From NCBI GenBank assembly GCA_029567025.1, contig JAKQLT010000058.1:1-46235 (forward strand): a stretch of 46,235 bases of DNA, written 5' to 3'. Below are positions 21,202 through 45,589 of this stretch, one piece after another. Source of the stretch: Candidatus Omnitrophota bacterium (GTDB lineage: Bacteria > Omnitrophota > Gorgyraeia > Zapsychrales > Zapsychraceae). Numbering within the stretch: position 1 is the first letter of the stretch; the number at the start of each line of letters is the position of its first letter. Below the pieces are notes generated by a model. That model saw only the letters and a program-made list of their open reading frames with translations, was not told where the DNA came from and made no database searches. The position numbers were made by a program, and so were the translations under genes.

Positions 21202-22794
21202 TTACGCCACCTTTGTTTCTCTTGATATTTTTAATTGCGTAATCGTTGAAAGCAAATAAAACATAGTAAAATACAAAGTCAATCCGCTTGCAAAACGATA
21301 AAATAAAAATCCTAACATTAAAGGAAATATAAACATCATCATTTTTTGCTGTTGAACTTGCATAGGATCAGAGCTTGCCATATTCGCAGATGTCAATTTT
21401 TGTTGATAAAACATAATAAAAATCATTAAAATAGGCAAAATATTAATTTCATTGCCTATTATAGGAAAACTCGCAGGAAGAATAAAAATCCTATCCGGAA
21501 GAGATAAATCTTTAATCCATAAGAAATCAGCGCCTTTAAATGATACTGAACGCCACAAAACTTGATATAATCCAACAAAAATCGGCATTTGTAATAACAT
21601 TGGCAAACATCCGCCCAAAGGATTAATTTTATGCTCTTTATAAAGCTCCATTATTTCTTGATTTGCTTTTTGCGGGCTATTCTTATGTTTTTCTTGAATT
21701 TTCTTCATTAATGGCTGTAATGCCTGCATTTTCTTCATAGAAACTAAACTACGAATTGTTAAAGGATATGTTGCCAAATAAATAATTATGCTTATTAAAA
21801 TAATACAAACTCCCCAATTAGGAATAACTTTATAAATCATATTCATCGTATGATCAATCGCTTTTGCAACAGCGTCGAAAAACCCTGACCTATAATACCT
21901 TTTAATCTCTAATAAATTATATTTTTTTAAAATATCTGTTATTTCTGGACCAGCAAATATTAACGACGAATACGATATTTCATTATTATTTTCTGATTGG
22001 ACATCAAAACCAATAGCCAATTTCTTTTCATTAATATATTCTATTGAATAACCGGAAACTTTATATTCTGGAACAACAATCAAAGAAAAGAATCTATCTC
22101 TAAAACCAACCCAATTAACATTAACAGAATTTACTTTATTTTCTTTTTCAGTAAACTTAAACGCCTTTGCTTTACGATCAATTTCGTTTTCTATACTAAT
22201 CGCATATTCAAATAATGAATTATCATGAATATTATTTCCTTTATTTCGATCAATATCCAGATTGGACATATCTAAAATCATTGCTAATTTACTTAAATTT
22301 TTCAGATTGGACAAATTATCTTTATTTTCTAACTTTATTTTCGATTCTACAATATATTCATCAGGCCTAATTTTATAAAATTTTGAAATTTTAATCTTTT
22401 CGTTTTCATAAAAATATTGAATTTCATTGTTATTTATTATTTTTGATGAAAATTCAACCTGATCATATTCTTTTAATCCAGTAATATTTTTTACAGGAAA
22501 ATATTGTTCATATTCATTAATAAAAATTTTATTGATATTTCCGCCTAAATTAGAAAAATCAACAGTTATTTTATTATTTTTTAAAATTTCTATTTTTTCT
22601 GAAAAATCAGAAGGGGATGGGATGAATTCTTTTGCCGAAGAAACATCTTTTTTATTTTCTATATCTTGTTTATTTTCAATCACTTCTGATGCTTTATTGA
22701 CATCTTTAACAACGATAGGCTTTGGCATGATCGCTGTCCAAATAAACAAAACCATAAAAGACAAAAAAATCGCTAAAAAAAATCTTTTTTCCAT
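21202..22794 (-). CDS. yidC: Membrane protein insertase YidC
   Basis: N-terminal TM helix, large periplasmic domain and a C-terminal 60-kDa IMP core (..KKMQALQPLMKKIQEKHK..NPLGGCLPMLLQMPIF..). Confidence 0.93.
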   Translation of the reverse strand: MEKRFFLAIFLSFMVLFIWTAIMPKPIVVKDVNKASEVIENKQDIENKKDVSSAKEFIPSPSDFSEKIEILKNNKITVDFSNLGGNINKIFINEYEQYFPVKNITGLKEYDQVEFSSKIINNNEIQYFYENEKIKISKFYKIRPDEYIVESKIKLENKDNLSNLKNLSKLAMILDMSNLDIDRNKGNNIHDNSLFEYAISIENEIDRKAKAFKFTEKENKVNSVNVNWVGFRDRFFSLIVVPEYKVSGYSIEYINEKKLAIGFDVQSENNNEISYSSLIFAGPEITDILKKYNLLEIKRYYRSGFFDAVAKAIDHTMNMIYKVIPNWGVCIILISIIIYLATYPLTIRSLVSMKKMQALQPLMKKIQEKHKNSPQKANQEIMELYKEHKINPLGGCLPMLLQMPIFVGLYQVLWRSVSFKGADFLWIKDLSLPDRIFILPASFPIIGNEINILPILMIFIMFYQQKLTSANMASSDPMQVQQQKMMMFIFPLMLGFLFYRFASGLTLYFTMFYLLSTITQLKISRETKVA

Positions 22795-22875
22795 AAATGA
22801 AATATTTTAAAATAAAACAATGCCCTTCCTATCACAAGGGCTAAAAATTGTCTCTAAAATATCACTGGTAAATTA

Positions 22876-23013
22876 TTATTTGGAGACGCGTTTACGTCCT
22901 TTAGCGCGCCTTCTATTTAAAACAATACGGCCGCTTTTTGTTCGCATGCGTTTACGAAAACCGTGTTTTCTTTTACCGACAATTTTGGTTGGAGTTTTTA
23001 AATGTTTTTTCAT
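22876..23013 (-). CDS. rpmH: 50S ribosomal protein L34
   Basis: Not in the ORF track (45 aa). My translation is [45 protein letters not shown], with the L34 signature [10 protein letters not shown]. Confidence 0.93.
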
Positions 23014-23546
23014 AGGGTGCAATTATAACATAGGTCTTTTGTTAGTCAAGAGCTTTTCCTGATGCTAAAAGGATAGGTATTGTTATTTTTTTACCGTCGG
23101 AAAATAAAGAATATTCTCACAATAAAAGAAAAAAATATTTTTTAAAGCGTTTAAAGTGCTTCTGCGCGAAACACTTGCAAGCGTGTTAAAATTTAATTTG
23201 AAATGATAATGTTCTTTGTTATAATAACCGCACATTTTCATTTTTTTATAAAACTATCGGCGATTGTAAGATTACAAATCCTCAAACAACAACGCGCCCT
23301 AAAGAAAAAGATTGACAATAGAATAATTTTCCAGTACAAATGAAACCCTTCGGCGTAAAAAACCGAATCTGTTATAACAGCCGAGTCATTCCGACGATGA
23401 TAATAAAAAACGTTTTAAAATACCGTCGTTCATATAAAAATTAAGGCTGTGGAAAACCTGTGAATATAAATTTTGTTTTACTGTAAATTGTTTATTTTCA
23501 ATATTTTAAGAATTTCTTGTTATTCTTAGCACATGTGACAAATCTT
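23014..23546. other. Candidate oriC region (rpmH-dnaA divergent spacer)
   Basis: A 533-nt AT-rich non-coding spacer at the exact point where gene orientation flips from all-minus to all-plus. It contains DnaA-box-like 9-mers and lies 2.1 kb from the parS sites. Confidence 0.6.
23448..23467 (+). promoter_or_regulatory. Two DnaA-box-like 9-mers
   Basis: tgtggaaaa (23448-23456) and tgtgaatat (23459-23467) each match TGTGNATAA at 8 of 9 positions. tgtgaatat recurs at 25022-25030, just before dnaN. Confidence 0.45.
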
Positions 23547-24881
23547 ATGAGTCTCGTCGAAATTTGGAAACAAGCGCAACCTGTCATTCGAGAAAAAATA
23601 GGCGCAACATCCTATGAAACGTGGTTCTCTAATATTGAGGCCCAAAACAAAGACAATAATATTCTGCAACTTCAAGCTCCGGATGAGTTTTTTAAAAATT
23701 GGATTGTCGAACATTATCGCGAACTTATAGAAGCAACGCTTAAAAATCTTTCACAAAACATCGCGCATATTGAATTTTCCGTCAATGAAAATATTATTCA
23801 AGAAGAAAAACGCCTACGTTTAGTAGAGTTCGAAAAAGATTTTCAGCCTGTCAAAAATCATCCATCACATTTAAATCATCGCTTTACCTTTGACCATTTT
23901 GTTATCGGCCCGTCAAATCGTTTCGCGTGTGCCGCGAGTTTAGCCGTCGCAGAATCGCCGGCTAAGGCCTATAATCCTTTATTCATTTACGGCGATGTTG
24001 GCTTAGGAAAAACTCATCTGATTCAATCAATCACGCATAAAATCCAGCAATTGCATCCCCAGCAAAAAATCTGTTACCTGACATCGGAACAATTTACTAA
24101 TGAACTAATTGACGCTATTCGTCATCGCTCAACACCGGAATTTCGCAAAAAATATAGAGAGGTCGACGTTCTTTTAATTGATGATATTCATTTTATCGCC
24201 GGTAAAGAGTCCACTCAAGAAGAATTTTTCAATACCTTTAACAGTTTACATGATAATCGCAAACAAATTATCATCACCTCAGATAGGCCACCCAAAGAAA
24301 TTTCTAATTTAGAAGAACGTTTACGGTCGCGTTTTGAATGGGGCTTAACAGCGGATATTCAACCGCCTGATTATGAAACGCGCATCGCGATCTTACAAAA
24401 AAAAGTGGAAAATGAAGCGGTGAAAGTTCCGCAAGATGTGATTCAATTTATCGCGGAACAAATTAAAACCAATATTCGAGAATTAGAAGGTGCGCTTATT
24501 CGGGTTGCGGCGTATTCTTTATTAGAAGAAAAAAAAGTTACACTAGAGCTTGCGAAATCTATTTTAAAAGATATGGTAAAAGAGACGACTAAAACGATTA
24601 GCATTGAAATGATTCAAAAAACAGTCGTTGATTATTTCAAAATGTCTTTAATGGAGCTGCGATCTAAACATCGCAATAAAAATGTGGTCTTGGCCAGACA
24701 AGTCGCGATGTATTTATGCCGGCAATTAACACATTTTTCCCTACCAGAAATTGGCAATGCTTTTGGAGGTAAAGATCACACAACTGTTCTACATTCTTGC
24801 AAAAAAATAGAAGACCAAATAAAAGAAGATAGCGGTCTTAAAAACCTGGTGATGGAGTTAACCACAATTTTACAACAATGA
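23547..24881 (+). CDS. dnaA: Chromosomal replication initiator DnaA
   Basis: MSLVEIWKQ..TWF N-terminus, AAA+ motifs (GDVGLGKTHL, LLIDDIHF) and a C-terminal DNA-binding domain (..GGKDHTTVLHSCKKI). ATG at 23547 is preferred to the TTG at 23517. Confidence 0.95.
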   Translation: MSLVEIWKQAQPVIREKIGATSYETWFSNIEAQNKDNNILQLQAPDEFFKNWIVEHYRELIEATLKNLSQNIAHIEFSVNENIIQEEKRLRLVEFEKDFQPVKNHPSHLNHRFTFDHFVIGPSNRFACAASLAVAESPAKAYNPLFIYGDVGLGKTHLIQSITHKIQQLHPQQKICYLTSEQFTNELIDAIRHRSTPEFRKKYREVDVLLIDDIHFIAGKESTQEEFFNTFNSLHDNRKQIIITSDRPPKEISNLEERLRSRFEWGLTADIQPPDYETRIAILQKKVENEAVKVPQDVIQFIAEQIKTNIRELEGALIRVAAYSLLEEKKVTLELAKSILKDMVKETTKTISIEMIQKTVVDYFKMSLMELRSKHRNKNVVLARQVAMYLCRQLTHFSLPEIGNAFGGKDHTTVLHSCKKIEDQIKEDSGLKNLVMELTTILQQ

Positions 24882-25030
24882 TTCATTAACATTTCACATG
24901 AAATACACAAAAGAAAAAATTATAACTCGTTCACAGGCAATATGTTTGAATCTTATTCAAGAAATACACAAACCTATTATGACGATGACTATTTAAATTA
25001 TTTTAATTAAGTTAAGGGAGATGTGAATAT

Positions 25031-26119
25031 ATGAAAATCAAAGTTGAAAAAGAAATTTTAATGTTAGGAATTCAAAAAGTTCAAAATATTGTTTCCACAA
25101 GAGCTTCATTACCAATACTTTCAAATATTTTAATAGAATCTAAATCTAATATTTTAAAGATGAATGCAACAGATTTAGATATTGGAATATCCTGTGAAAT
25201 ACCTGTGGAAACGTTTGAAGAAGGTTCTATTACAATTCCAGCTAAAAAATTTAATGATATTATTAAGGAATTACCTGTGGGCGATGTTGTGGTTCATGTG
25301 AAAAAAAATAATCATGTTGATATAGAAGGTAAGAATTGCCGTTTCAAATTAATAGGATTGCCTAAAGAGGAATTTCCAAAATTTCCAGAATTTAAAGATA
25401 AGGAAGTATATCGCATAGGGCAAAAAGATTTTAAAGATATGTTGCGATTAACCAGTTTTGCCGTTTCTCATGAAGAATCGCGTTATGTGTTAAATGGTGT
25501 TTTATTTGAGATTAAAGAAGGTGTTTTGATTTTGGTGGCGACTGATGGCCGTCGTTTAGCTAAAATAGAAAAGAAATTAACACAATCTATTAAAAAGGAA
25601 TCAATGGTTATTATTCCCACTAAGGCGGTTCAAGAAATTGTGAGGAATTTGAAGGATGAGGGGGATGTTTCTTTTATTATTGGCACCAATCAGGTTTTGT
25701 TTGATATTGATGGTTTATTGATAGCGACGCGCATTATCGAAGGTGAATTTCCTAATTATCATCAAGTGATTCCTAAACCATCCAAAAATATGGTGCATGT
25801 TAACACGCAGGAGTTTTTATCAGCGATTAAACGGGCGGATATTTTTTCAACCCCGGATTTTCAGGCGATTAAGTTTGAGGTTTTTAGTAATAAAATGGTT
25901 ATTTCCAAAAATACGCCGGATGTGGGTGAGTCTCGAGAAGAAATTACAGCGCAATATAATGGTTCAGAAATTATTGTGGGATTTAATCCGCAGTATTTGA
26001 TTGAATTTTTGAAAAATATGAGCGTTGAAGCGATTGATATTGAAATTTTAGGTGCGGATAAACCGGCGGTTATGCGTTTGGATGATTATCTTTATTTAGT
26101 CTTACCGATGAGAATTTAA
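25031..26119 (+). CDS. dnaN: DNA polymerase III beta sliding clamp
   Basis: 362 aa. Typical three-domain clamp pattern (..LATDGRRLA.., ..LVLPMRI C-terminus). RBS AAGGGAG. Confidence 0.95.
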   Translation: MKIKVEKEILMLGIQKVQNIVSTRASLPILSNILIESKSNILKMNATDLDIGISCEIPVETFEEGSITIPAKKFNDIIKELPVGDVVVHVKKNNHVDIEGKNCRFKLIGLPKEEFPKFPEFKDKEVYRIGQKDFKDMLRLTSFAVSHEESRYVLNGVLFEIKEGVLILVATDGRRLAKIEKKLTQSIKKESMVIIPTKAVQEIVRNLKDEGDVSFIIGTNQVLFDIDGLLIATRIIEGEFPNYHQVIPKPSKNMVHVNTQEFLSAIKRADIFSTPDFQAIKFEVFSNKMVISKNTPDVGESREEITAQYNGSEIIVGFNPQYLIEFLKNMSVEAIDIEILGADKPAVMRLDDYLYLVLPMRI

Positions 26120-26156
26120 GAATTTTTTGAATTTTAATGGATATTGTCAACGACTT

Positions 26157-28912
<2,756 letters not shown>

Positions 28913-28979
28913 AGATTAAGTCAACTGTCATCGGTTTTTTGATGCGTTTATTTTTTAAAAGAGGAAAGGGTTTTAAGGT

Positions 28980-31436
28980 ATGAAAGATTGGACAACGCGA
29001 GAAAAAATAGTTCCGGTCAATATTGAAGAGGAAATGAAAAAATCTTATATGGCGTACTCCATGAGCGTTATTGTGGGGCGGGCTTTGCCGGATGTTCGTG
29101 ATGGATTAAAACCGGTTCATCGACGCGTGTTATACGCGATGAAAGAATTATCTTTAGAGTATGGCAAACCGTATAAGAAATGCGCGCGTATTGTCGGTGA
29201 GGTTTTAGGGAAATATCATCCGCATGGCGATGTGGCGGTTTATGAAACGCTGGTGCGTATGGTCCAGGATTTTTCTTTGCGTTATCCTTTGGTCGATGGT
29301 CAAGGCAACTTTGGCTCTGTCGATGGGGATTCGGCGGCCGCGATGCGTTATACTGAAGCGCGCATGGCCTCTGTCACGAATGAAATGCTTGCTGATATTG
29401 ATAAAGAAACCGTTGATTTTATGCCGAATTTTGATGCGTCGTTAAAAGAACCGGCGTTGTTACCAGCCGCTTTTCCTAATCTTTTGGTCAATGGGTCCAG
29501 CGGTATTGCCGTTGGGATGGCGACGAATATGCCTCCTCATAATTTGGGAGAAATTTGTGATGCGGTTGTTTCTGTGATTGAAAATCCCGAGACTGATATT
29601 AAGGCTTTGTGTAAAATTGTGAAAGGCCCAGATTTTCCGACGGCAGGAATTATTTGTGGCCGCGATGGTATTGCGGATGCTTATCAAACAGGACGTGGAA
29701 AAGTCCTTTTACGCGCGAAAGCCGTTATTGAAAAACAAAATAATAAGAAAGACTGCATTATTGTCTCGGAAATTCCGTATCAGGTCAATAAATCGAATTT
29801 GATTGCAACTATTGCTGGATTGGTTCAGGAAAAAAAGGTGGAAGGGATTACGGATATTCGTGACGAATCCAATAAAGAAGGTATTCGGATTGTTATCGAA
29901 TTACGCCGTGATGTTGAACCGCAAATTATTTTAAATTACCTTTATAAACACACACAATTAGAAACGACTTTTGGAATCATTAATTTGGCGCTTGTGAATA
30001 GTCAGCCTAAAGTCCTTAATTTAAAACAATTATTGCAATATTTTATTGATCATCGGCGCGTGATTGTTCGTCGTCGTACGGAATTTGATTTGTCCCGCGC
30101 TTTACGTCGAGCACATATTTTAGAGGGGTTGCGCATCGCGATCAAAGCGATTAACCAAATTATTAAAACGATTCGAGAGTCGAAAAGCACTGTTGAAGCG
30201 AAAGTCGCGTTAATGAAAGAATTTGGATTAACCGAAATTCAGGCCCAGTCCATTCTTGAAATGCAATTGCAGCGTTTAACAGCTCTTGAACGCGATAAAA
30301 TTGAAAATGAATATCAGGCGCTTTTAAAAGATATTGAGCATTATCGCGCCATTTTAGCGTCGGAAAAAATGATTGATGATATTATTAAAGAAGAAACCCA
30401 AGAGATTAAAAAGAAATACGCGGATGAGCGCCGCACGGAAATCGCAGGGAAAGCCGAAGATATTGAAGTCGAGGATTTGATTGCTGAAGAAGATATGGCG
30501 ATTACTATTTCCAATGAAGGTTATATCAAGCGTCTCGCTGTTTCAGCTTATCGTAAGCAAAAGCGCGGCGGTAAAGGTGTTTCCGCGATGACAACCAAAG
30601 AAGAAGATTTTGTCAAACAGCTTTTTGTGGCTTCTTCTAAAGATTATTTATTAATTTTTTCGAATGAAGGAACCGTGCGTTGGCTAAAAGTTTATGAAAT
30701 TCCTATAGCATCTCGCACGGCCAAGGGAAAAAATATTGTGAATCTTTTATCGATGGGAAAAGATGAAACAATTAGCTCTATCGTGGCAGTTAAAGAATTT
30801 GTTGATGATCAATTTATTGTCATGGCAACGGCCAAAGGAAATGTCAAAAAAACAAAATTATCCGCTTATAGTAATCCGCGTAAGAGCGGCATCGTCGGAA
30901 TAACATTAGAAAAAGGCGACGCGCTGGTCGGAACAGCATTAAGCAATGGCAGCCATGAAGTTTTATTAGCGACCAAACAAGGGAAAGCTCTTCGTTTTCC
31001 TGAAAAATTATTGCGCGATATGGGGCGAGGGGCTAAAGGCGTGCGCGGGATTCGTTTAGGGAAAGATGACGAGGTTGTTAGCATGCTTGTTTTTCCGTCG
31101 GACGTGAGTAAGACAGGAAGCACCTTATTAACGGCGATGTCTTTGGGCTTCGCGAAACGATCGGATTTCGAAGAATATCGTGTTCAGTCCCGAGGAGGAA
31201 AAGGGATTATTAACGTTAAGGTTACTGAACGCAACGGTTATGTGGTCGGTGTTTTGTCTGTTATGCCGGAAGATGAAATTATGGCAGTAACGAAAAATGG
31301 TATGATGGTGCGATGTCCGCCGAATGAAATCCGTCAAACAGGACGCAGTACACAAGGTGTGAAATTGATGAATTTGGATAAAGGCGATATGATTATGTCT
31401 GTGGCTATTATTGCGGCGAAAGAAGACGAAGAATAG
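28980..31436 (+). CDS. gyrA: DNA gyrase subunit A
   Basis: Active-site region [15 protein letters not shown] motif and C-terminal beta-pinwheel repeats. Confidence 0.96.
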
Positions 31437-31514
31437 GTCGTGTTTTTTTACTTGACCGATAACCAAACTTTCATATAATAGTGCCGCTTTATTATAGATT
31501 TTTATTTTTTTTAT

Positions 31515-31588
31515 GACCCCATCGTCTAGCCTGGTCAGGACACAAGCTTTTCAAGCTTGCAGCGCGGGTTCAAATCCCGCTGGGGTCG
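31515..31588 (+). tRNA. tRNA-Glu (anticodon UUC)
   Basis: gaccccatcgtctagcctggtcaggacacaagctttTTCaagcttgcagcgcgggttcaaatcccgctggggtcg has a 7-bp acceptor stem and a TTCAAAT T-loop. Confidence 0.88.
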
Positions 31589-31596
31589 TTAATAAT

Positions 31597-31626
31597 TCCT
31601 TCGTGTAAAAAACGGAGGATTTTTTA
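31597..31626 (+). terminator. Rho-independent terminator after tRNA-Glu
   Basis: Stem tccttcg / cggagga (7 bp including one G-U), 9-nt loop, then TTTTTTATTT. Confidence 0.6.
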
Positions 31627-31668: not shown

Positions 31669-31697
31669 TTGAAACAATATTTTTTTAGACGTATAAT
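31669..31697 (+). promoter_or_regulatory. Sigma70-like promoter for the PilZ::PilT gene
   Basis: TTGAAA (31669-31674), 17-nt spacer, TATAAT (31692-31697). Confidence 0.5.
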
Positions 31698-31728: not shown

Positions 31729-33117
31729 ATGGCAGAAATTTTAAGTAAAAAAAGCAGAAAAACACCTCGTCGAAAAATTCGTATTCCTGTGGTTTGCTGG
31801 GATGGCCGCGATGAACAACGCCAGGGGCAAGGAAAAGAATTATTGATAAGGGATTTAAGCGCGGATGGCATTGGCTTTATGTCGAAACAAATTTATACCG
31901 TGGGGACCCTGTTATTTATTGATATGTATTTGCCTAAACGGAAGAAACCTGTATCGTGCCAAATTAAAGTTGTTTTTGTGAAAGCCCTTTTGCAAACAGC
32001 TGATTATGTGATGGGCGCGTCTTTTGTCAATTTATCCGATGAAGATAAGCAGTTTATTATTTTTTCTTTAGAAAAAATGGATTTTTATCTTTTATTAGAA
32101 AGTATGGTTAAGGGCGGGGCGTCTGATTTGCATTTGACAGTTGGCCGTCCTCCAATGGTTCGACGAGATGGACGTATTTTAGCGATGGCGACTGATCCTT
32201 TAGAAGAAGGGGAAGTTGAGGCCATGCTGTATCCTTTATTATCCGATGAGCAGATTCAGAATTTTAAACGAACAAAAGAATTAGATTTTGGTTTCTCTCC
32301 GAATGTAGATTGCCGTTTTCGCGTGAATATGCATTGGCAAAAAGGTTTTGTCGAAGCGGCTATTCGTAATATTCCAACGGATATTAAAACGTTTGAGGAA
32401 TTGGGCTTAGCGACTAAACAAATGGAAGGATTTTGTCAGGATCTTTCCGGATTATTTTTAATCGCCGGGACAACCGGATCTGGAAAAACAACCACCATGG
32501 CGTCCATGATTAATTTTATCAATCATAATCAGAAAAAAGTTATTATTACTATTGAAGACCCCGTGGAATATATTTTTAAGAGTGCGCAAAGCGTAATTAA
32601 ACAAAGAGAATTAGGAAGCGATACGCAGTCGTATGCCGAGGCGTTAAGGCGCGCTTTACGCCAAGATCCTGATGTGTTGTGTGTGGGAGAAATTTTGGAC
32701 GCCGAATGTTTAAAGGCCGCGTTACGCGCCGCGGAGACAGGGCATTTTGTCATTTCAACCATTCACGCTCCGGATACCGTTTCAGCGATTGAACGCGCGG
32801 TTAATTTTTTCCCGCCGGAACATGCCATGGCAATTCGCCAACAATTAGCGACAGCGCTCAAAGCGGTTTTATTTCAAATTCTTTTGCCGCGCAAAGATCA
32901 AAAAGGACGTGTTTTAGCAACAGAATTGTTAATTAACAATAGCGCGATTAAGAATTTAATTCGTGAAGGTAAGGGGATGCTTATGGGAAGCGTTTTGCAG
33001 ACCGGCAAGACTTTAGGGATGCATACGTTACAAAATTCTTTAGAAGAATTATTCAAAAAGGGATTGATCGACGAAGAAACCGTTTTGAGTCTTACCAGCC
33101 GAGAGCACGCGCTTTAA
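31729..33117 (+). CDS. PilZ-domain::PilT-like type IV pilus retraction ATPase fusion
   Basis: The N-terminal ~110 aa carry RxxxR (RRKIR, 14-18) and DxSxxG (DLSADG, 42-47). The remainder is PilT-like: ASDLHLTVGRPP, Walker A GTTGSGKTT, DPDVLCVGEI, TGHFVISTIHA and the PilT signature AIKNLIREGK. Confidence 0.85.
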   Translation: MAEILSKKSRKTPRRKIRIPVVCWDGRDEQRQGQGKELLIRDLSADGIGFMSKQIYTVGTLLFIDMYLPKRKKPVSCQIKVVFVKALLQTADYVMGASFVNLSDEDKQFIIFSLEKMDFYLLLESMVKGGASDLHLTVGRPPMVRRDGRILAMATDPLEEGEVEAMLYPLLSDEQIQNFKRTKELDFGFSPNVDCRFRVNMHWQKGFVEAAIRNIPTDIKTFEELGLATKQMEGFCQDLSGLFLIAGTTGSGKTTTMASMINFINHNQKKVIITIEDPVEYIFKSAQSVIKQRELGSDTQSYAEALRRALRQDPDVLCVGEILDAECLKAALRAAETGHFVISTIHAPDTVSAIERAVNFFPPEHAMAIRQQLATALKAVLFQILLPRKDQKGRVLATELLINNSAIKNLIREGKGMLMGSVLQTGKTLGMHTLQNSLEELFKKGLIDEETVLSLTSREHAL

Positions 33118-38002: not shown

Positions 38003-39766
38003 ATGATAAAAAAGAAAAAGTTTTTTTATTTCATTTTTTTTGTTGTTATTTGCTGTTTATTTTTTTCAAAAGCGCTTTGTGCTCAAATAGCAGAACAAGC
38101 GGACATTGTTGATACAAAAGAAGCCAAAGGCATTGCGTTAATGAAAGGAGAAATAGCAACTCTAAAGGTGTATGATTTAACACGGATTTCTTTAACAGAT
38201 CCTTCCGTGGCTGATATTATTGAAGCTAAAGGCGATAAAATTTTATTAATCGCGCGTGAGGTTGGACAAACGGTTTTATTTTTATGGGATAAATATGGAA
38301 AAAAGACTTTTGTTGTGTATGTTTTTAACCAAAATTTGGAAGAAATTCAAAATCGTTTAATATCTCTTTTTCAAGTCGCTGAAATTGAAGGTATTCAATT
38401 GTCCATTAATAATAAAGAAGGAAAAATAGTGCTTTCTGGCGGAGTGCCAGAAGATAAACAAGATTTATTTAATAAAATTATAGAACCATTTTCTCCAGAT
38501 ATTATTGTATTAACAGAGAAAGAAAAACGCGATGATTTGGTGCAAATAGACATGCAGGTGACTGAATTATCGACGACATTATCACAAACCTTAGGTATTG
38601 ATTGGACAAATCAACTGAAATACAATGAAACATTACCGAGCTTTGACGGATCCGTTAAAGATTATTTTAAAATAGGAGATTTTAATCGTACCACAGCTCT
38701 TTTAGCAACGGTTAACGCTTTGCTTGTCGAAGGAAAGGCGCGTATTTTATCACAACCTAAATTAGTTGTCGTAAGTGGTGAAGAAGCGAATTTTTTGGTT
38801 GGAGGGGAAATTCCTGTTAGAACCGCAACGGTTAATGAAACAGGAACGGCTGAGAATGTGAATTATAAATCTTATGGTATTGGAATGACAATAAAACCTA
38901 TTATTCGTAAGAAAAAAATAGATATTACGTTAAGCACAGAAATTAGCGACGTGGATGCTTCTAATTCTTCAGAAGATAATGTTGCTTTTGTTACGAGAAC
39001 AGCGCAAACACAGTTGTTTTTAGAAGATGGCCAAACCATTGTTTTGGCTGGATTGATTAGAAGTACAAAAAGTCAAGAAGTTAAACAAGTGCCGTTTTTA
39101 GGAAAAATACCTGTTGTTGGATTATTATTTCGTAGTAAATCAACGCCTGCCGCTAATCAAGACAATGAAATAGTTATTTCTTTAACGCCGTATATTTTAA
39201 TGAATAAAAAAGATGATTTGGTTTTAGAGAATATGGAAAACATGCGCATACAAGAGAAAGCAGTCAATAATATAGCGCAAGAAAAAGAAGAACCAAAAAT
39301 GTTAGATATTCAGGATTCTGTTGATGAGAAGACTTTAGAACAATCTCAAAAAGTTGAGACGCTTGCAGAAAAATCACCGCTGATTAAAAAGACTGTCAAA
39401 GAAATGCCTGTGATTGATGAAAAGCCATTATCGGTGAATTCTTCAGAATATCTTTTTGGTATTCCGGAAGAATTGCAAGAGTATGTTAAAGATGTTCAAA
39501 AAAGAATTGCTCAAGCGATTTCTTATCCTCAGGAAGCACAAAGTTATGGTTGGCAGGGCGTTGTTAAAATCGGAATGCTTATTCTTAACGACGGAACGCT
39601 TGCCTTCGCTTTGGTAAAAGAATCATCCGGCTATGAAGTTTTTGATAACAACGCGTTAAAGGTCGCAAAATCTTTAGCGCCTTATCCGCGTTTTCCTGCG
39701 AATACGGATTTGATGGAATTAAGCATTACCGTTCCTATCGTTTATTCTTTGACCAAACAAAAATAA
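38003..39766 (+). CDS. cpaC: Tad-type secretin (CpaC/RcpA-like) fused to a C-terminal TonB_C-like domain
   Basis: Signal peptide. Pilus-formation N-terminal domain (..ISLTDPSVADIIEAKGDKILLIAREVGQTVLFLW..). Secretin core (ARILSQPKLVVVSGEEANFLVGGEIPV.., VPFLGKIPVVGLLFRS). Charged linker, then YPQEAQSYGWQGVVKIGMLILNDGTL..VKESSGYEVFDNNALKVAKSL..FP, which matches the TonB C-terminal pattern. Confidence 0.82.
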   Translation: MIKKKKFFYFIFFVVICCLFFSKALCAQIAEQADIVDTKEAKGIALMKGEIATLKVYDLTRISLTDPSVADIIEAKGDKILLIAREVGQTVLFLWDKYGKKTFVVYVFNQNLEEIQNRLISLFQVAEIEGIQLSINNKEGKIVLSGGVPEDKQDLFNKIIEPFSPDIIVLTEKEKRDDLVQIDMQVTELSTTLSQTLGIDWTNQLKYNETLPSFDGSVKDYFKIGDFNRTTALLATVNALLVEGKARILSQPKLVVVSGEEANFLVGGEIPVRTATVNETGTAENVNYKSYGIGMTIKPIIRKKKIDITLSTEISDVDASNSSEDNVAFVTRTAQTQLFLEDGQTIVLAGLIRSTKSQEVKQVPFLGKIPVVGLLFRSKSTPAANQDNEIVISLTPYILMNKKDDLVLENMENMRIQEKAVNNIAQEKEEPKMLDIQDSVDEKTLEQSQKVETLAEKSPLIKKTVKEMPVIDEKPLSVNSSEYLFGIPEELQEYVKDVQKRIAQAISYPQEAQSYGWQGVVKIGMLILNDGTLAFALVKESSGYEVFDNNALKVAKSLAPYPRFPANTDLMELSITVPIVYSLTKQK

Positions 39767-39784: not shown

Positions 39785-41950
39785 ATGAATGCAAAAACGA
39801 TAACACTTTTTAGTAATAAAGGTGGCGTGGGTAAAACTTTTATCGCGGTAAATTTAGCCGCGGCGTTGGCCATTTCTAAAAAGAAAGTTTTACTTTTAGA
39901 TTTTGACTTGCAAGCCGGCCAAGATATGGCCCGTGTCATTAATCTTTCCCCGAAAGCATCCATTATCGATCTTTTGCCTCGATTAGAAACAATTGAAAAA
40001 ATAGATTCGATGATCGAATTTGTCGCTGTTCATTCGTCGGGCGTTCATTTCTTACCTGCCGTGCGCGGCATTAAACAAATCAATCATGTTACTCCAGATA
40101 ATATCAAACCGTTTATTCGTAAGGCTAAAGAATTTTATGATTATATTCTGATTGATGCGGGCCGTTCGTTTAGTGAGACATTAATTACTCTTTTTGATTA
40201 TTCGAATTTGTTATTATTGGTGGCCACACCTGATATTTTAGCTGTTTATCAAATTAAAACGAGTATTGATATTTTGCAGAATCTTCAATTCCCGCTTAAG
40301 ATTGCAAAACTGATTTTAAATCGTTCGGAAAGTAGCGGAAGCGTGGCGTGGCAGGAAATTCGTACCGCACTTCCTTGTGAGATTTTCAGTCATATTCCTT
40401 CCGACGGAAAAGTAGTAGGTTTAGCCTTAAATCGTGGAATTCCGTGTGTTTTAGATAGTCCTAAAAGTAAAGTCGCTGAGTCTTTTATGCGCATGGCCCA
40501 GATGATTGAAAAAGATAAAGATCTTTTTGTGGAATCAACGGATATTGAAAAACAAAGGGCGGTAGAAAGCGTTTCTGCTCAAGGGCAATTTTGGGAAAAT
40601 TTTGGAATTTCTCAGCATGTGGCGGATGCGGCTGGCGCTATCACGGCTATTAAAGAAGATGATGAAATAACTATTTTAAAGAAAAAAATACATGAAAAAC
40701 TTATTGAGCGTTTAAATCTCGACGGGATTACGCCAGAGAAATTAAACGATCCACAAACGATAGCGCGTGTTAAAAAAACATCGGAACAGTTAGTCGGAAA
40801 TCTTTTAATGGAAGAAATGGGCGGGAAACAAATCGCTTCTCATGAAGAGCGTATTCATATTGTGAAAGACGTGGTCAATGAGGCTTTAGGATTAGGGCCT
40901 TTAGAAGATCTTTTGGCGGATGGCGATGTGACAGATATTATGGCGAATAATCGTAATGAAATTTATGTGGAGAAAAACGGCCGTCTTGTGTTAACCAATA
41001 AGAAATTTTTGTCTGATTCTCGCATGCGTGCGGTTATAGATCGTATTATCGCGCCTTTAGGCCGTCGTATTGATGAATCAACGCCGATGGTGGATGCGCG
41101 TTTGCCTGACGGTTCGCGTATTAACGCGATTATTCCGCCATTGTCTTTAAACGGTCCGATGATTACGATTCGTAAATTTGGACAGGAGCGTTTAACGGTC
41201 ACAGATTTACTGTCTCAGTATAAAAGTTTGACAGAGCCAATGTCAAAATTTTTACAAGCGAGCGTTGTGGCGCGAAAAAATATTATTGTTTCCGGCGGAA
41301 CAGGTTCAGGAAAAACAACTCTTTTAAACGTGTTATCTGAATTTATTCCTGATGGAGAGCGCATTATTACGATAGAAGACGCCGCAGAATTGAAACTCAA
41401 AAAAAGCCATTGGGCGCGATTAGAGTCACGACCGTCGAACGTTGAAGGAAAAGGCCAGGTAACCATTCGGGATCTTTTTACGAATTGTTTGCGTATGCGA
41501 CCTGATCGTATTGTTATTGGGGAATGTCGTGGCGCTGAAGTTTTAGATATGCTTCAGGCAATGAATACGGGACACGATGGTTCTTTAACCACTATTCACG
41601 CGAATTCCGCGCGCGATGTTTTGACGCGTTTGCATTCTTTAATTTTATTAAGTGGTATTGAACTTCCTGTTCGCGCTATTAATGAAATGGTGGCTTCCGC
41701 GATTCATTTGATCGTTCACATTAATCGTTATTCCGACGGTTCAAGAAAAGTGACTGGTATCGCGGAAATAGTGGGATTAGATAAAGATTTTCAGCCAGAA
41801 CTAAAAGATATTTTTGTTTTTAAACAGGCTGGCATTGACTCTGATGGAAAAGTGATAGGTTCTTATGTCCCAACCGGATACATTCCAAAATGTTATCAGG
41901 ATTTTATCACTCAAGGCATCAAAATTGATAAAAATATTTTTTCGCTTTAA
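39785..41950 (+). CDS. TadZ/CpaE-like ParA/MinD ATPase fused to TadA/CpaF secretion ATPase
   Basis: Residues 1-245 are ParA/MinD-like (FSNKGGVGKTFIAVNLA, LIDAG). Residues ~290-721 are CpaF-like (LGPLEDLL.D..VTDIM.N, Walker A GGTGSGKTT, IITIEDAAEL, RPDRIVIGECRG, NTGHDGSLTTIHANS). It is one uninterrupted 721-aa ORF. Confidence 0.85.
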   Translation: MNAKTITLFSNKGGVGKTFIAVNLAAALAISKKKVLLLDFDLQAGQDMARVINLSPKASIIDLLPRLETIEKIDSMIEFVAVHSSGVHFLPAVRGIKQINHVTPDNIKPFIRKAKEFYDYILIDAGRSFSETLITLFDYSNLLLLVATPDILAVYQIKTSIDILQNLQFPLKIAKLILNRSESSGSVAWQEIRTALPCEIFSHIPSDGKVVGLALNRGIPCVLDSPKSKVAESFMRMAQMIEKDKDLFVESTDIEKQRAVESVSAQGQFWENFGISQHVADAAGAITAIKEDDEITILKKKIHEKLIERLNLDGITPEKLNDPQTIARVKKTSEQLVGNLLMEEMGGKQIASHEERIHIVKDVVNEALGLGPLEDLLADGDVTDIMANNRNEIYVEKNGRLVLTNKKFLSDSRMRAVIDRIIAPLGRRIDESTPMVDARLPDGSRINAIIPPLSLNGPMITIRKFGQERLTVTDLLSQYKSLTEPMSKFLQASVVARKNIIVSGGTGSGKTTLLNVLSEFIPDGERIITIEDAAELKLKKSHWARLESRPSNVEGKGQVTIRDLFTNCLRMRPDRIVIGECRGAEVLDMLQAMNTGHDGSLTTIHANSARDVLTRLHSLILLSGIELPVRAINEMVASAIHLIVHINRYSDGSRKVTGIAEIVGLDKDFQPELKDIFVFKQAGIDSDGKVIGSYVPTGYIPKCYQDFITQGIKIDKNIFSL

Positions 41951-42429: not shown

Positions 42430-44247
42430 ATGGGTGTTATTTATAAGCTAAAACAAGAAGTTATTGATTATATTCTTCACATAAAGAAAGAAAATAATGA
42501 TTTTAGTTGCCGTCAAATTGCGAAAATCGCTTCCGATAAATTTGATGTGGACATTTCTAAATCTTCTGTAAATACTATTCTTAAGAATTCTCAATTAAGT
42601 AGCGGTGTCGGTCGTCGGGTTATTCAAAAAAAAGATTCGAGCCGCAAGTTTCAGATTCCTCAAGAAAGAAAAGAACAATTTCAAGAAACCATGAAACAGT
42701 TTGGTTTTGAAAAAGAAAATGTTGTTGCCATAGAAGAGCCGATAGCTGTACCGCTTTTGCCGGATGCAGTTAAGGAAAATCTTTTTTTGGAGCCCAAAAG
42801 CGATGATATCATGCTTTTGGAATCTCAAGCGCCAACATTATTAGTCTCGCAAGAACAACATTTGTCTTTAACCGATCAAACAGATTCAAAGCTGATAGAA
42901 GAAATAGATTTTTTACGCCAACAAAAACAGCAGGCATTTTCAAAAGTTTATACAAATGCAGGAGTTATTTTATTAAAAGCATTGTTATTGTTGACAGATG
43001 GCATCGGATTTTTATTGAAGATTATTAAAAAATATAATCCAGAACATATTTTTCCGGATAATTTTGAAGAGAGTTTAAATATTTTTCTTTTATTAAAGGC
43101 CTTAGGAATCAAAGATCCTTTTGAAGAAGATATTTCTTCTTACGCGGCAGGACTTTTGGGGCTACAAAAATCAGATAGCGCTTATGTGGGTCAGGCATTA
43201 GCCAGCGAAGATTCTCGAAAGATTTTTTTTCAGTGGAGCAAAAAAATACGCCTTTCTGATGATTTATTAAAGGAATACAGGAAAGAGAAAAATAATCTAT
43301 TTTTGAGCGTTTATGGCTTTAGGATAGAGTTGGAAGACAAAACAGTTTTATTGACAGATGCTTCTTTAAAATCTTTTTATAAAGAAATGGATTGTATTTT
43401 TCCATTGCCTTTTTATCATGCGATTCGTTTATTGTCTCAATATTTTATTGTGAATGAAAAGCCGATGGTTTTTGATTTTTCCGGAAATTCTTTGTTGTAT
43501 TTGCCTCAGATTGCCAAGATGTTCGATAATGTAAAAGAAAAGCGCGTTCAAAAAATATTTATCTTGAATGATCATCTGCAAGACATTTGTGAATTATCCG
43601 TCATTCCTCAAAAAAAGCGTCAATGGATAGCCCGTGTCGATTTTTCTTTTTTTGAAGGTATGGAAAAAACGGTTTCGGCGGGATCCCGTAAAAAAGTTTT
43701 TTATGATGCATTGTCCGACGAGATATATGATTTTTCAGAATTTCTTTGCCAGCTTGATCATAATCAAAACGTGAGAGCGTTTATTATTGAAAATAAATCG
43801 TGCGAGCGTTTAGCGACTGTTTTTTCTAATTGTTTTGAAATGGAATCTGAAGCTGTTGTATCGTCTTTTTTTATGCGTTTTATATTTAAAAATTCTTTTG
43901 TTAAAGAAAAAGTTTCTGTTACCGGATTTTTAAAGAATAATGAAAATGCGATAATAGAAAATTTTTCAGATTTGGCGGACGACTTTTTAAAAACGTTCGC
44001 GAATTATTTTACGCAGTATTTTTTGTCTGATAAGAATAAAGATAATAGTAGCGCTTGGAATGAATTTTTGAAATTGAAAGGCTCTTTCGATGAGACAAAA
44101 CAATTTTTACATGCGCTGTTTTATCTCGATGAAAAAAGTCCTTTTAAGAATGATTGTATTATGGCAATGCGCATTTTCAATGAGTATTTGATTTTGGATG
44201 ATAAACAGCGCAGGATTTTTTTAGATATTGCTAAAATCAACAATTAG
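42430..44247 (+). CDS. Hypothetical 605-aa protein with an N-terminal helix-turn-helix-like region
   Basis: The N-terminus FSCRQIAKIASDKFDVDISKSSVNTILKN looks like an HTH. The rest has no recognised motifs. Only one weakly hydrophobic stretch (AGVILLKALLLLTDGIGFLL), so it is not a TadB/TadC polytopic platform protein. Confidence 0.6.
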   Translation: MGVIYKLKQEVIDYILHIKKENNDFSCRQIAKIASDKFDVDISKSSVNTILKNSQLSSGVGRRVIQKKDSSRKFQIPQERKEQFQETMKQFGFEKENVVAIEEPIAVPLLPDAVKENLFLEPKSDDIMLLESQAPTLLVSQEQHLSLTDQTDSKLIEEIDFLRQQKQQAFSKVYTNAGVILLKALLLLTDGIGFLLKIIKKYNPEHIFPDNFEESLNIFLLLKALGIKDPFEEDISSYAAGLLGLQKSDSAYVGQALASEDSRKIFFQWSKKIRLSDDLLKEYRKEKNNLFLSVYGFRIELEDKTVLLTDASLKSFYKEMDCIFPLPFYHAIRLLSQYFIVNEKPMVFDFSGNSLLYLPQIAKMFDNVKEKRVQKIFILNDHLQDICELSVIPQKKRQWIARVDFSFFEGMEKTVSAGSRKKVFYDALSDEIYDFSEFLCQLDHNQNVRAFIIENKSCERLATVFSNCFEMESEAVVSSFFMRFIFKNSFVKEKVSVTGFLKNNENAIIENFSDLADDFLKTFANYFTQYFLSDKNKDNSSAWNEFLKLKGSFDETKQFLHALFYLDEKSPFKNDCIMAMRIFNEYLILDDKQRRIFLDIAKINN

Positions 44248-44287: not shown

Positions 44288-44314
44288 TTTTATGAAAGAG
44301 TGTTTTTAGCGGTT

Positions 44315-44470
44315 ATGATTATTTTAAAAAACAATCATAAAGGTCAAAGTATTATTGAATATGTTCTTGTCGCGACTATTGTCGCGGCCGCTGTTATGGC
44401 TATGAGCACTTATGTTTTTCGTTCGGTTCAGGCCACACAGCAAATGATTCAAAAGGAAGCTAATAAATAA
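44315..44470 (+). CDS. flp: Flp-family prepilin (51 aa)
   Basis: Not in the ORF track (short). My translation is MIILKNNHKG/QSIIEYVLVATIVAAAVMAMSTYVFRSVQATQQMIQKEANK*. It has the G/xxxxEY processing motif followed by a hydrophobic helix. An upstream in-frame GTG at 44300 is an alternative start. Confidence 0.75.
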   Translation: MIILKNNHKGQSIIEYVLVATIVAAAVMAMSTYVFRSVQATQQMIQKEANK

Positions 44471-44506
44471 TAAAATAATAAGAGAGAAAATAAAGGAGGA
44501 AAGCGC

Positions 44507-44719
44507 ATGTTAAGACAATATCAGGCAGGATGTTTTAAAAGAAAGAGAAAAGGACAAAGTACGGTTGAGTATATTATTTTAGTAGCAGGCGTTATTGCGG
44601 TCTTATTGATTTTTTTACGTCCCAACGGCCCTTTTCATACGGCTTTTAATGAAACATTAAAAACCGGAACAAATGGAATGGAAACTATAGCTGAAAGATT
44701 AAAAAATTCTCATTCATAA
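44507..44719 (+). CDS. Flp-like prepilin paralog (70 aa)
   Basis: RBS AAAGGAGGA. KRKRKG/QSTVEYIILVAGVIAVLLIF. Confidence 0.78.
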   Translation: MLRQYQAGCFKRKRKGQSTVEYIILVAGVIAVLLIFLRPNGPFHTAFNETLKTGTNGMETIAERLKNSHS

Positions 44720-44749
44720 AAAAGGTCATAAAAGATCAGGAGGCGTTTT

Positions 44750-45172
44750 ATGTTGAAAAAATTATTTAAAAATAAGAAGGCCCAAAATACCGCTGAATAT
44801 GCGATATTGATTTCTTTAGTTGTGGACGGGATTGTTGCTATGCAAACGTATGCTCAACGAGCTTTGCAAGCTCGCGTTAAAGATTCAGCTGATGTTATGA
44901 CATCTATTGTGGGTACTTCAGATGTTCAGAATTCTTGGAGTGATGTTGGCGGAAATGCTTTAGGTTCCACAAAACAATATGAACCATATTATTTAGCGCA
45001 AGATTATAATGTTTATCGTGATGATTCAGAAGAAAAAGGTTATGATACTGCGGGCTTTTATGTTGATTCTAATGGAGAAAGAAGGAGAAGAGGTAAACAA
45101 ACGACAACATATAATGAATCCGGCACAGTTGGTACAGGCATGAGTGGATTGTCCAAATCACCAACACCATAG
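44750..45172 (+). CDS. Flp/TadE-like pilin paralog (140 aa)
   Basis: RBS AGGAGG. KNKKA/QNTAEYAILISLVV, then YAQRALQARVK and a YEPYY motif. Confidence 0.75.
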   Translation: MLKKLFKNKKAQNTAEYAILISLVVDGIVAMQTYAQRALQARVKDSADVMTSIVGTSDVQNSWSDVGGNALGSTKQYEPYYLAQDYNVYRDDSEEKGYDTAGFYVDSNGERRRRGKQTTTYNESGTVGTGMSGLSKSPTP

Positions 45173-45220
45173 TAACATATGTAATAAAATAAAATATTTT
45201 ATAATTTTAAGGAGGAAATA

Positions 45221-45589
45221 ATGTTTAAATATTTAAATAAAAAAAGAGGTCAAAGCACTTTAGAATATGCGATTTTGATAATAATTATTATAGGCGCGCT
45301 TTTATCCATTCAGGTTTATATTAAGCGCGGTATTCAAGGCCGTTTAAAAGGCGCGGCGGATGATATCGGGGATCAATTTTCACCAGGAAATACGAATTCC
45401 AGAATAACTACAAGGACAATAAGTAATACTCAAGAAACAAATTATGGAGGTGAGGCTACGTCTGAATTGTTAGAAGATGAAGTTACAACGACTAATAAAA
45501 CGCTTAGAATTATTAATACTGATCAAGAATATTGGGGAGTATCTCATAGCGCTAGTGGTCAGGGTCAGATCCCGCAGAATCCTAATTAA
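45221..45589 (+). CDS. Flp/TadE-like pilin paralog (122 aa)
   Basis: RBS AAGGAGGA. NKKRG/QSTLEYAILIIIIIGALL, then YIKRGIQGRLK. Confidence 0.75.
   Translation: MFKYLNKKRGQSTLEYAILIIIIIGALLSIQVYIKRGIQGRLKGAADDIGDQFSPGNTNSRITTRTISNTQETNYGGEATSELLEDEVTTTNKTLRIINTDQEYWGVSHSASGQGQIPQNPN

Follow-up and report, generated by a model that had tools for sequence, protein, structure and literature searches.

The DNA analyzed here, a stretch of 46,235 nucleotides from a ‘Candidatus Omnitrophota’ genome that we call the window, encodes a protein that combines a PilZ domain and a PilT-type ATPase in one polypeptide. The gene lies near the replication origin and is surrounded by housekeeping genes. The following features mark the gene and its upstream region:

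31514-31589: tRNA-Glu, upstream of the promoter match
31597-31619: terminator-like hairpin, between the tRNA-Glu and the promoter match
31669..31697, + strand: sigma-70-like promoter match (TTGAAA-17-TATAAT, 11/12), 32 nt upstream of the fusion start codon
31729..33117, + strand: PilZ::PilT fusion gene, ATG start, 462 aa, one ORF

An AGGA sequence is located 9 nt 5' of the start codon. The promoter match comes after both the tRNA-Glu and the terminator-like hairpin, and this order suggests that the fusion gene is a transcription unit apart from gyrA, although the match is to the consensus only and such sites in this region do not exceed shuffle expectation. The original prediction, made from the sequence of the window, stated that a single 462-aa ORF joins PilZ to a full PilT-type ATPase. 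This holds, and both domains score above the curated cut-offs of their profiles.

The larger part of the protein is the ATPase core, in which the following features were found (conservation among 40 homologues):

32083..33105, + strand: complete PilT-family ATPase, residues 119-459, with an N-terminal PAS-like domain and a C-terminal RecA-like ATPase domain
32467..32493, + strand: Walker A GTTGSGKTT, residues 247-255; G247, G252, K253, T254 and T255 invariant
32548..32568, + strand: Asp box TIEDPVE, residues 274-280; E276, P278 and E280 invariant, D277 at least 90%
32665..32691, + strand: Walker B and catalytic Glu DPDVLCVGE, residues 313-321; D313, P314, D315 and E321 invariant
32737..32766, + strand: His box TGHFVISTIH, residues 337-346; T337, G338, V341 and T344 invariant, H339 and H346 at least 90%
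32944..32967, + strand: PilT signature AIKNLIRE (canonical AIRNLIRE), residues 406-413; A406, I411, R412 and E413 at least 90%

The core matches the NCBIfam family TIGR01420 (‘PilT/PilU family type 4a pilus ATPase’) with 401.2 bits (cut-off 319.1), spanning model positions 5-341 of 343, and Pfam T2SSE with 140 bits. Its sequence matches include the PilT of Aquifex (2ewv, E 3e-85) and that of P. aeruginosa (3jvu, E 1e-80). PilT sequences score 275-290 bits against the core and P. aeruginosa PilU 220 bits, with DotB and TraJ below PilU. The AIRNLIRE signature separates PilT from PilU, which is not known to carry it; the AIKNLIRE of the fusion aligns with the AIRNLIRE of Aquifex PilT. Translation confirmed this motif as well as the Walker A, Asp box and His box that had been read from the sequence earlier. 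With its catalytic motifs intact, the core is predicted to be an active-type PilT enzyme.

The N-terminal part contains the following features:

31756..32058, + strand: PilZ domain, residues 10-110, with six beta-strands and then helix 104-116
31756..31773, + strand: predicted c-di-GMP-binding motif RxxxR(R), R10-K-T-P-R14-R15, from translation, Pfam register and conservation
31852..31869, + strand: predicted c-di-GMP-binding motif (D/N)xSxxG, D42-L-S-A-D-G47, from translation and conservation

The Pfam profile PilZ (PF07238, gathering cut-off 22.5) is matched with 30.7 bits by the full protein and with 34.4 bits by the isolated N-domain, and 29 of 34 N-domains of the fusion family match it too. 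No match to MshEN (PF05157) was found in the fusion at E-values up to 1. The second ligand motif is DLSADG at residues 42-47, as had been proposed. The first had been read as RRKIR at residues 14-18, which is four residues too late: the Pfam register and family conservation point to R10-R14, followed by R15. Across 94 full-length N-domains, conservation is 88% at R10, 94% at R14 and 90% at R15, but just 55% at R18; for the second motif the values are 93% (D/N42), 86% (S44) and 97% (G47). D42-L-S-A-D-G47 begins 27 residues past R14, so that the spacing of the two motifs is canonical. A strict regular expression recovered both motifs in 71 of 100 fusion-length relatives, and the remainder includes several truncated gene calls.

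An AlphaFold2 model of the full protein (pLDDT 91.1, pTM 0.83) places a PilZ barrel next to the PilT-like core without a flexible linker. Strands are predicted at residues 21-27, 30-43, 47-52, 61-66, 75-86 and 93-100, followed by helix 104-116 (pLDDT of the models 87-91). Searching the PDB with the N-domain sequence and its profile retrieved no PilZ match and only a chance match to eIF4A, and therefore the structural relatives had to be sought by fold. When the N-domain model was compared with the PDB using Foldseek, the best ~30 matches were all c-di-GMP-binding PilZ domains, including MotI (5vx6), Alg44 (4rt0/4xrn), BcsA (4p00), MrkH, VCA0042 and YcgR, with E-values down to 1.4e-5 and TM-scores of 0.6-0.7. 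The type II/tetrameric PilZ structures of Xanthomonas ranked below these. For the core, Foldseek retrieved Geobacter PilT4 (6ojy/6ojz, E 1e-38, target-normalised TM 0.83-0.86), and target-normalised TM-scores were 0.83-0.89 across PilT4, PilT and PilU, as expected for a two-domain PilT fold in the model. The N-domain thus models as a PilZ barrel in which both c-di-GMP motifs are intact and conserved. Motifs and predicted fold together identify it as a PilZ domain of the type that binds c-di-GMP, and it is predicted to do so.

The same PilZ-PilT fusion was found in about 100 clusters (clustered at 90% identity) among the best 120 matches. The clusters are 50-72% identical and share a conserved junction without linker, EKMDLYxLLxSAxxGGASDLHL. 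A frameshift or an assembly accident is not the source of the fusion, because these clusters are independent, stem from other metagenomes and agree in length, architecture and junction. The architecture had been called unusual. This is true for the literature, where full-text searches turned up no account of such a fusion, but not for the databases; the design is conserved but apparently undescribed. Neighbour-joining on the ATPase core by itself grouped all 101 fused proteins in a single clade, and the 87 ordinary PilTs, 15 of them from Omnitrophota, all fell outside it. These sequence relationships indicate a single origin of the fusion. The canonical Omnitrophota PilTs used for comparison were taken from a scan of GTDB species-representative genomes, in which full-length alignment returned, among the matches listed, ordinary PilTs only (query residues ~117-454). 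Since the ordinary Omnitrophota PilTs form a separate lineage, the fused protein represents an extra paralogue family. Its named members belong to Omnitrophota, joined by Planctomycetota-like relatives with degenerate motifs. Two short members (P0064 and P0077, 376-395 aa) first appeared to have lost PilZ, but both start inside the PilZ domain and are truncated gene calls. The best match to the N-domain profile, P0126 (4841 aa, ‘25 stretches’), is an artefact of surface-protein repeats and no PilZ array.

The PilZ domain could instead be a ligand-independent adaptor that places or oligomerises the ATPase, in the way that the PilZ proteins of P. aeruginosa and Xanthomonas bind PilB and not c-di-GMP. 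Such non-binding PilZ regulators of pilus ATPases are well documented (bioRxiv 10.1101/814665; PMC8389850), and the effect of the Xanthomonas protein XC_2249 on PilT/PilU does not need c-di-GMP binding, as far as the summary in PMC3749722 goes. In the Planctomycetota-like subclade the N-domain is kept while its motifs have become DLGEDG or GLNRQG and RxxxR is lost; the domain therefore persists there without canonical ligand contacts, and it may have a ligand-independent role. The N-domain also evolves faster than the core (mean pairwise identity 39% vs 60%). However, in the fused protein and in most Omnitrophota relatives the motifs are canonical and well spaced, and their positions are among the most conserved of the N-domain. 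Non-binding PilZ proteins typically lack the N-terminal RxxxR segment (bioRxiv 10.1101/814665), and the nearest structures are ligand-binding PilZ domains rather than those of the type II/tetrameric Xanthomonas group. We regard such a ligand-independent adaptor role of the domain as rather unlikely for this protein.

A second question is which pilus the motor would serve. The only pilus machinery near the gene had been described as Tad-type, and this is correct for the 46-kb window. The Tad-type locus is real: it begins 4 kb downstream of the fusion on the same strand and encodes RcpC, a secretin, TadZ::TadA, DUF192 and four Flp-like pilins, and TadB and TadC were found on contigs of the same species. 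The order PilZ-PilT ... Tad is held in relatives down to 50% identity, and at five syntenic loci the pilus genes near the fusion are of the Tad type only. In Caulobacter, c-di-GMP reportedly influences the retraction of Tad pili. The fusion could be read as the retraction ATPase of this Tad-type pilus, dedicated to it and controlled by c-di-GMP; the pilus would otherwise rely on its single TadZ::TadA, a separate protein of 721 aa. Several observations speak against this link, which the original prediction had implied. Firstly, four metabolic genes (2-hydroxyacid dehydrogenase, C-N hydrolase, malate dehydrogenase and PPIase) separate the fusion from the Tad genes, and the interval also has a 200-bp gap and a promoter-like site. 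Secondly, the whole block from dnaA to Tad is collinear in relatives and this synteny is by descent; the linkage is therefore not specific to these two systems. Thirdly, it is lost in other members: at four fusion loci (L004, L005, L007 and L088) no Tad genes occur within 10 kb, and one of these, L004, still keeps the C-N hydrolase and malate dehydrogenase neighbours. Lastly, the core is a PilT that is remote from CpaF/TadA (CpaF E 1e-6; 53 bits for the TadA/CpaF family TIGR03819, well short of its cut-off of 373), and PilT genes are often unlinked from pilus genes, such as the orphan PilT on an Omnitrophota chromosome at locus L013. A motor dedicated to the Tad pilus thus seems quite improbable, and it is very improbable that the fusion is a c-di-GMP-gated retraction motor for the adjacent Tad pilus or for both pilus systems. 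If this last reading were true, no dedicated Tad retraction ATPase would precede it and no retraction motor would have had a direct c-di-GMP receptor before, and the messenger would decide when an ultra-small, probably host-attached cell pulls itself towards its host or prey.

Within the 46-kb window no type IVa pilus genes (pilB, pilC, pilM-Q) were found. HD-GYP genes encode c-di-GMP phosphodiesterases, and about 407 kb of Omnitrophota loci contained three HD-GYP proteins, one of them encoded two genes from a PilZ-PilT gene; a motif scan of the same loci for GGDEF (diguanylate cyclase) found none. MshEN-PilB homologues are abundant in Omnitrophota, and one locus (L051) carries a type IVa motor cluster with PilT, PilT/U, two MshEN-PilB and PilC. 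An uninformative comparison of the longest contigs bearing Omnitrophota PilB matches with fusion-bearing contigs showed no pair of equal length. Type IVa pilus genes occur in nearly all Omnitrophota genomes, for example in 135 of 141 Velamenicoccia (PMC10066038); the supplementary tables of that paper have nothing under PilT, PilZ or diguanylate. It is very improbable that the fusion is a PilT-like paralogue outside pilus retraction, for instance one that powers secretion or a different type IV filament or serves as a PilU-like accessory. In favour of such a role, ordinary Omnitrophota PilTs form a lineage of their own to which the fusion is extra, and the gene sits amid housekeeping genes by the replication origin. 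Against it, the AIRNLIRE-type signature is retained and conserved, the core scores PilT above PilU and both above DotB and TraJ, and no other partner system except Tad is evident nearby.

We therefore consider it probable, with moderate confidence, that the fusion is a c-di-GMP-gated type IVa retraction motor, a PilT hexameric ATPase with a PilZ domain in cis that is expected to bind the ligand. The machine it serves would most likely be the type IVa pilus of nearly all Omnitrophota, and not the Tad pilus encoded downstream. In the proposed mechanism, c-di-GMP would be clamped between the flexible N-terminal R10xxxR14R15 segment on one side and the D42xSxxG47 barrel strand on the other. The C-terminal helix of the barrel (104-116) would lead, two residues on, into helix 1 of the N-terminal PilT domain. 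With only two residues between these helices, ligand binding could be relayed rigidly to that domain, where it would change either how the hexamer packs (open or closed) or how it docks to the platform protein, and in this way pilus retraction would be switched. In the hexamer, the six barrels would be expected at the face of the N-domains or around the periphery, the position of N1D/MshEN in PilB. Both the allosteric coupling and the direction of control are put forward here as suppositions. By analogy with YcgR and MotI at flagellar motors we favour a brake, in which high c-di-GMP would reduce retraction and keep the bacterium firmly on a surface or host cell, but this sign is a guess; published cases go either way (PMC7096442).

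How bacteria choose between extension and retraction of type IV pili is only partly understood. To our knowledge, every c-di-GMP input characterised so far targets the extension motor or goes through a separate adaptor protein. With a canonical c-di-GMP receptor and the retraction motor naturally joined in one polypeptide, the messenger would have direct access to retraction. Since its sensors are fixed at six per hexamer, the fusion would be well suited to biochemistry and cryo-EM. Omnitrophota are believed to attach to host cells by their pili, and the fusion suggests that a second messenger controls this step.

The statement in the original prediction that known c-di-GMP control of pilus motors works via MshEN domains or separate PilZ/FimX partners agrees with published work. 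Among the nearest known designs are the MshE/PilB extension ATPases (PMC4624772), which are likewise type IV pilus motors of the same superfamily with an N-terminal c-di-GMP sensor in cis; in these proteins and in the fusion alike the sensor precedes the N-terminal ATPase domain. The fusion differs in that its sensor is a PilZ beta-barrel and not MshEN, and its motor is the retraction ATPase PilT and not an extension ATPase. The Omnitrophota PilB proteins carry MshEN, and the fusion is similar to this group in design but not a member of it. PilT and PilU themselves were thought unlikely to be regulated by c-di-GMP (Roelofs et al., 2015; PMC4624772).

Canonical PilTs (Aquifex 2ewv, P. aeruginosa 3jvv and Geobacter PilT4 6ojx) are 41-43% identical to the fusion over the whole core and share its catalytic motifs, AIRNLIRE signature and fold, but they start at the equivalent of M116 (MDFY...) and have no N-terminal extension. 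Canonical PilZ domains that turn c-di-GMP binding into mechanical or allosteric control of a motor or enzyme are known from the flagellar brake/clutch proteins YcgR and MotI (DgrA) and from the C-terminal PilZ of BcsA; all three rank high among the structures that the N-domain matches. BcsA is a precedent for gating in cis. These systems differ in their targets, the flagellar stator/rotor and cellulose synthase, and YcgR and MotI act in trans. PilZ-fold regulation of pilus motors with a direct or indirect response to c-di-GMP occurs in FimX-PilZ-PilB of Xanthomonas and PilZ(PA2960)/PlzR-PilB of P. aeruginosa (PMC8389850, PMC11461919), but in those systems PilZ is without the binding motifs, works in trans and is directed at PilB, the motor for extension.

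[quoted passage not shown] According to this summary, a PilZ-domain protein there touches the ATPases for retraction and influences motility by pili, as is envisaged for the fusion, and c-di-GMP binding by XC_2249 is dispensable for the motility effect. The fusion differs from XC_2249 in its covalent linkage and in its conserved ligand motifs. It looks like a single-polypeptide (‘Rosetta stone’) form of the XC_2249-PilT/PilU pairing, and in this manner it supports the PilZ-PilT/PilU interaction of Xanthomonas.

The ORF at 31729-33117 (+) has an ATG start with an AGGA 9 nt upstream of it and encodes a protein of 462 aa. The original prediction that this single ORF joins a PilZ domain to a PilT-type ATPase holds, as Pfam finds both PilZ and T2SSE (PF00437, 140 bits) and NCBIfam finds TIGR01420. 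Along the protein the following elements were located, the short motifs other than RxxxR by translation:

Residues 10-110, PilZ domain (PF07238; 30.7 bits in the full protein and 34.4 bits in the N-domain alone, gathering cut-off 22.5 bits)
Residues 10-15, RxxxR element R10-K-T-P-R14, then R15 (Pfam alignment and family conservation)
Residues 42-47, DLSADG
Residues 122-459, TIGR01420 'PilT/PilU family type 4a pilus ATPase' (401 bits, cut-off 319 bits, essentially the whole model covered)
Residues 247-255, Walker A
Residues 274-280, Asp box
Residues 313-321, Walker B
Residues 337-346, His box
Residues 406-413, AIKNLIRE

Translation verified each motif listed earlier, but the arginine motif had been read in the wrong register, as RRKIR: among 94 full-length N-domains R18 is kept in only 55%, versus 88% for R10, 94% for R14 and 90% for R15. 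The N-domain evolves faster than the ATPase core (mean pairwise identity 39% versus 60%), and despite this its ligand-contact positions rank among its most conserved. Sequence comparison to known structures gave 275-290 bits for PilT, 220 for Pseudomonas aeruginosa PilU, 113 for DotB and 30 for CpaF. Every sequence and fold criterion applied places the protein in the PilZ and PilT families, and it is a member of neither the MshEN nor the TadA family.

An AlphaFold2 model of the full protein, built from 40 homologues, was confident (pLDDT 91.1, pTM 0.83). It predicts six strands in residues 21-100 followed by a helix (104-116), with only two residues between this helix and the first helix of the PilT N-terminal domain (119-128). 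Residues 1-122 were also modelled separately (pLDDT 87) and compared with the PDB. The best ~30 matches were all c-di-GMP-binding PilZ domains (MotI/DgrA, Alg44, BcsA, MrkH, VCA0042, PP4397, YcgR and PA0012), with E-values down to 1.4e-5 and query-normalised TM-scores of 0.6-0.7, and the non-binding tetrameric PilZ structures of Xanthomonas were placed lower. The N-domain is thus modelled as the PilZ barrel that had been expected. The full model matched Geobacter PilT4, Thermus PilT2, P. aeruginosa PilT and PilU, and Aquifex PilT (E 1e-35 to 1e-38).

A homologue search of 5.8 billion proteins yielded, among the matches listed, about 100 clusters of 430-500 aa that align with 93-99% of the query at 50-72% identity, most of them already annotated with PF07238 and PF00437. 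All named members within the top ~80 matches were Candidatus Omnitrophica/Omnitrophota, so the window almost certainly derives from this phylum. No linker separates the two domains at the junction, which is conserved (EKMDLYxLLxSAxxGGASDLHL); canonical PilTs generally begin at its MD.... Shorter, seemingly PilZ-less family matches were rejected as domain losses, being truncated gene calls that begin within the barrel. A neighbour-joining tree restricted to the ATPase core grouped all 101 fused proteins in a single clade free of unfused sequences and left all 87 ordinary PilTs, 15 of them from Omnitrophota genomes, outside it, in a sampling biased by the fused set being the top matches to the query. 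This topology is consistent with a single ancient fusion and with a paralogue family separate from the ordinary PilT of Omnitrophota. A more distant subclade retains the N-domain with degenerate motifs; the genes next to its members resemble those of planctomycetes, and one of these members is labelled Pirellulaceae. A profile search with the N-domain against 1.84 billion representatives returned many stand-alone PilZ proteins (E 1e-10 to 1e-16), and its top match was discarded as a repeat artefact. The family search also returned proteins of 710-766 aa annotated as PilT/PilU (P0076, P0078, P0083, P0086 and others) that match ~73% of the query length; judged from their length they appear to consist of two tandem PilT-like ATPase units, and the named ones come from Alphaproteobacteria MAGs.

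The PilZ-PilT gene adjoins the replication origin, where the sign of the GC skew switches at about 23-24 kb; a Tad-type locus lies further 3':

21202-31436, origin neighbourhood: yidC, parA and parB (-); dnaA, dnaN, a DciA-like ORF, gyrB and gyrA (+), in this order
26127-26441 (+), the small DciA-like ORF
31514-31589 (+), tRNA-Glu (anticodon ttc), between gyrA and the PilZ-PilT gene
31597-31619, terminator-like hairpin between tRNA-Glu and the PilZ-PilT gene (consensus match only)
38003-39766, Tad-type secretin with a C-terminal TonB_C domain (residues 506-583), a combination found in all syntenic relatives
39785-41950, TadZ::TadA, a single 721-aa protein with a ParA/MinD-like TadZ/CpaE domain and a TadA/CpaF-type T2SSE ATPase
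42430-44247, conserved 605-aa protein without Pfam family, with a weak HTH-like match only
44300-45589, four tandem Flp-like pilin genes with the G/xxxxEY processing motif

On the plus strand the fusion gene is followed by genes for a 2-hydroxyacid dehydrogenase, a C-N hydrolase, malate dehydrogenase and a PPIase before the Tad locus, which also encodes RcpC/CpaB, ahead of the secretin, and DUF192, between TadZ::TadA and the 605-aa protein. Promoter-like sites, both consensus matches only, occur 5' of the fusion gene and 3' of mdh, within the 200-bp gap ahead of the PPIase gene. Elsewhere in the window, rpoZ and gmk flank a 909-aa ORF (14558-17287, -) that has no match in Pfam. TadZ::TadA is conserved in relatives (66-79% identity) and the 605-aa protein occurs in all syntenic relatives (49% identity in locus L001). 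In same-species contigs from other metagenomes the Tad locus extends ~10 kb further (L090, 11886-21818), through three small ORFs of 111-159 aa, possibly minor pilins, and proteins of 523 and 1100 aa without known identity, to TadB and TadC.

The pilus machinery near the fusion is, as originally noted, only of the Tad type. Relatives at 72%, 59%, 57% and 50% identity share the order gyrA, PilZ-PilT, metabolic genes, Tad; in the same relatives gene order is also retained back to dnaA and yidC, and the proximity is synteny by descent, not specific linkage. In locus L004 the family gene still neighbours those for the C-N hydrolase and Mdh, but no Tad genes occur within 10 kb, and in L005, L007 and L088 its neighbours are unrelated. 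Since PilT genes are frequently unlinked from their pilus genes, position says little about the pilus served; an Omnitrophota chromosome (L013) also carries a canonical PilT as an orphan gene. Every test identifies the ATPase as a PilT, with TadA/CpaF only remote relatives. Type IVa pilus genes are reported for nearly all Omnitrophota (135/141 Velamenicoccia, 19/23 Omnitrophia, 38/40 Gorgyraia) and Tad components in roughly half (Seymour et al., 2023; PMC10066038). Omnitrophota are rich in MshEN-PilB homologues, and one MAG of the phylum (L051, 9926-18063) carries a type IVa motor cluster of PilT, a second PilT/U, two tandem MshEN-PilB paralogues and PilC. Because type IVa genes are near-universal, the ATPase is a PilT and position is a poor guide, the fusion probably serves a type IVa pilus, and a role in the Tad pilus is improbable.

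From the intact ATPase, the PilZ fold with canonical conserved binding motifs and the rigid helix-to-helix junction we infer a mechanism in three steps. c-di-GMP would be held between the N-terminal arginine segment and the barrel; this would alter the packing of the PilT N-terminal domain in the hexamer, or docking to the platform; and retraction would be gated as a consequence. The PilZ sensor lies N-terminal to the ATPase N-domain, which, judging from domain order, would be the position of MshEN in PilB/MshE. Published c-di-GMP systems differ in the sign of the effect, so a brake at high c-di-GMP, favoured by analogy with YcgR and MotI, is a guess. Omnitrophota loci contain HD-GYP phosphodiesterase genes (L004 6777-8255 (-), L015 15239-16402, L018 15566-16729) near PilT-family genes, all three with intact HD...GYP motifs; one of them also has GAF domains and is found two genes upstream of a PilZ-PilT gene, and each of the other two has a canonical PilT at a distance of ~4-5 kb. 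A scan of about 407 kb of Omnitrophota sequence revealed no GGDEF motif.

Phrase searches of the literature found no description of a PilZ-PilT fusion, and two broad surveys of PilZ architectures make no mention of PilT or ATPase fusions. Neither the parts nor the regulatory logic are new; the combination is apparently undescribed and conserved in a phylum, and offers a clean, readily testable model of how c-di-GMP could control retraction. The known routes by which c-di-GMP acts on pilus motors are MshEN in MshE/PilB (PMC4624772), FimX-PilZ-PilB (PMC8389850) and PlzR/PilZ-PilB (PMC11461919). For the retraction motors, X. campestris provides XC_2249, a separate PilZ protein that contacts PilT and PilU, and ligand binding is dispensable there (PMC3749722). 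The HD-GYP genes beside PilT-family genes in Omnitrophota recall the HD-GYP/PilZ/PilT complex of Xanthomonas.
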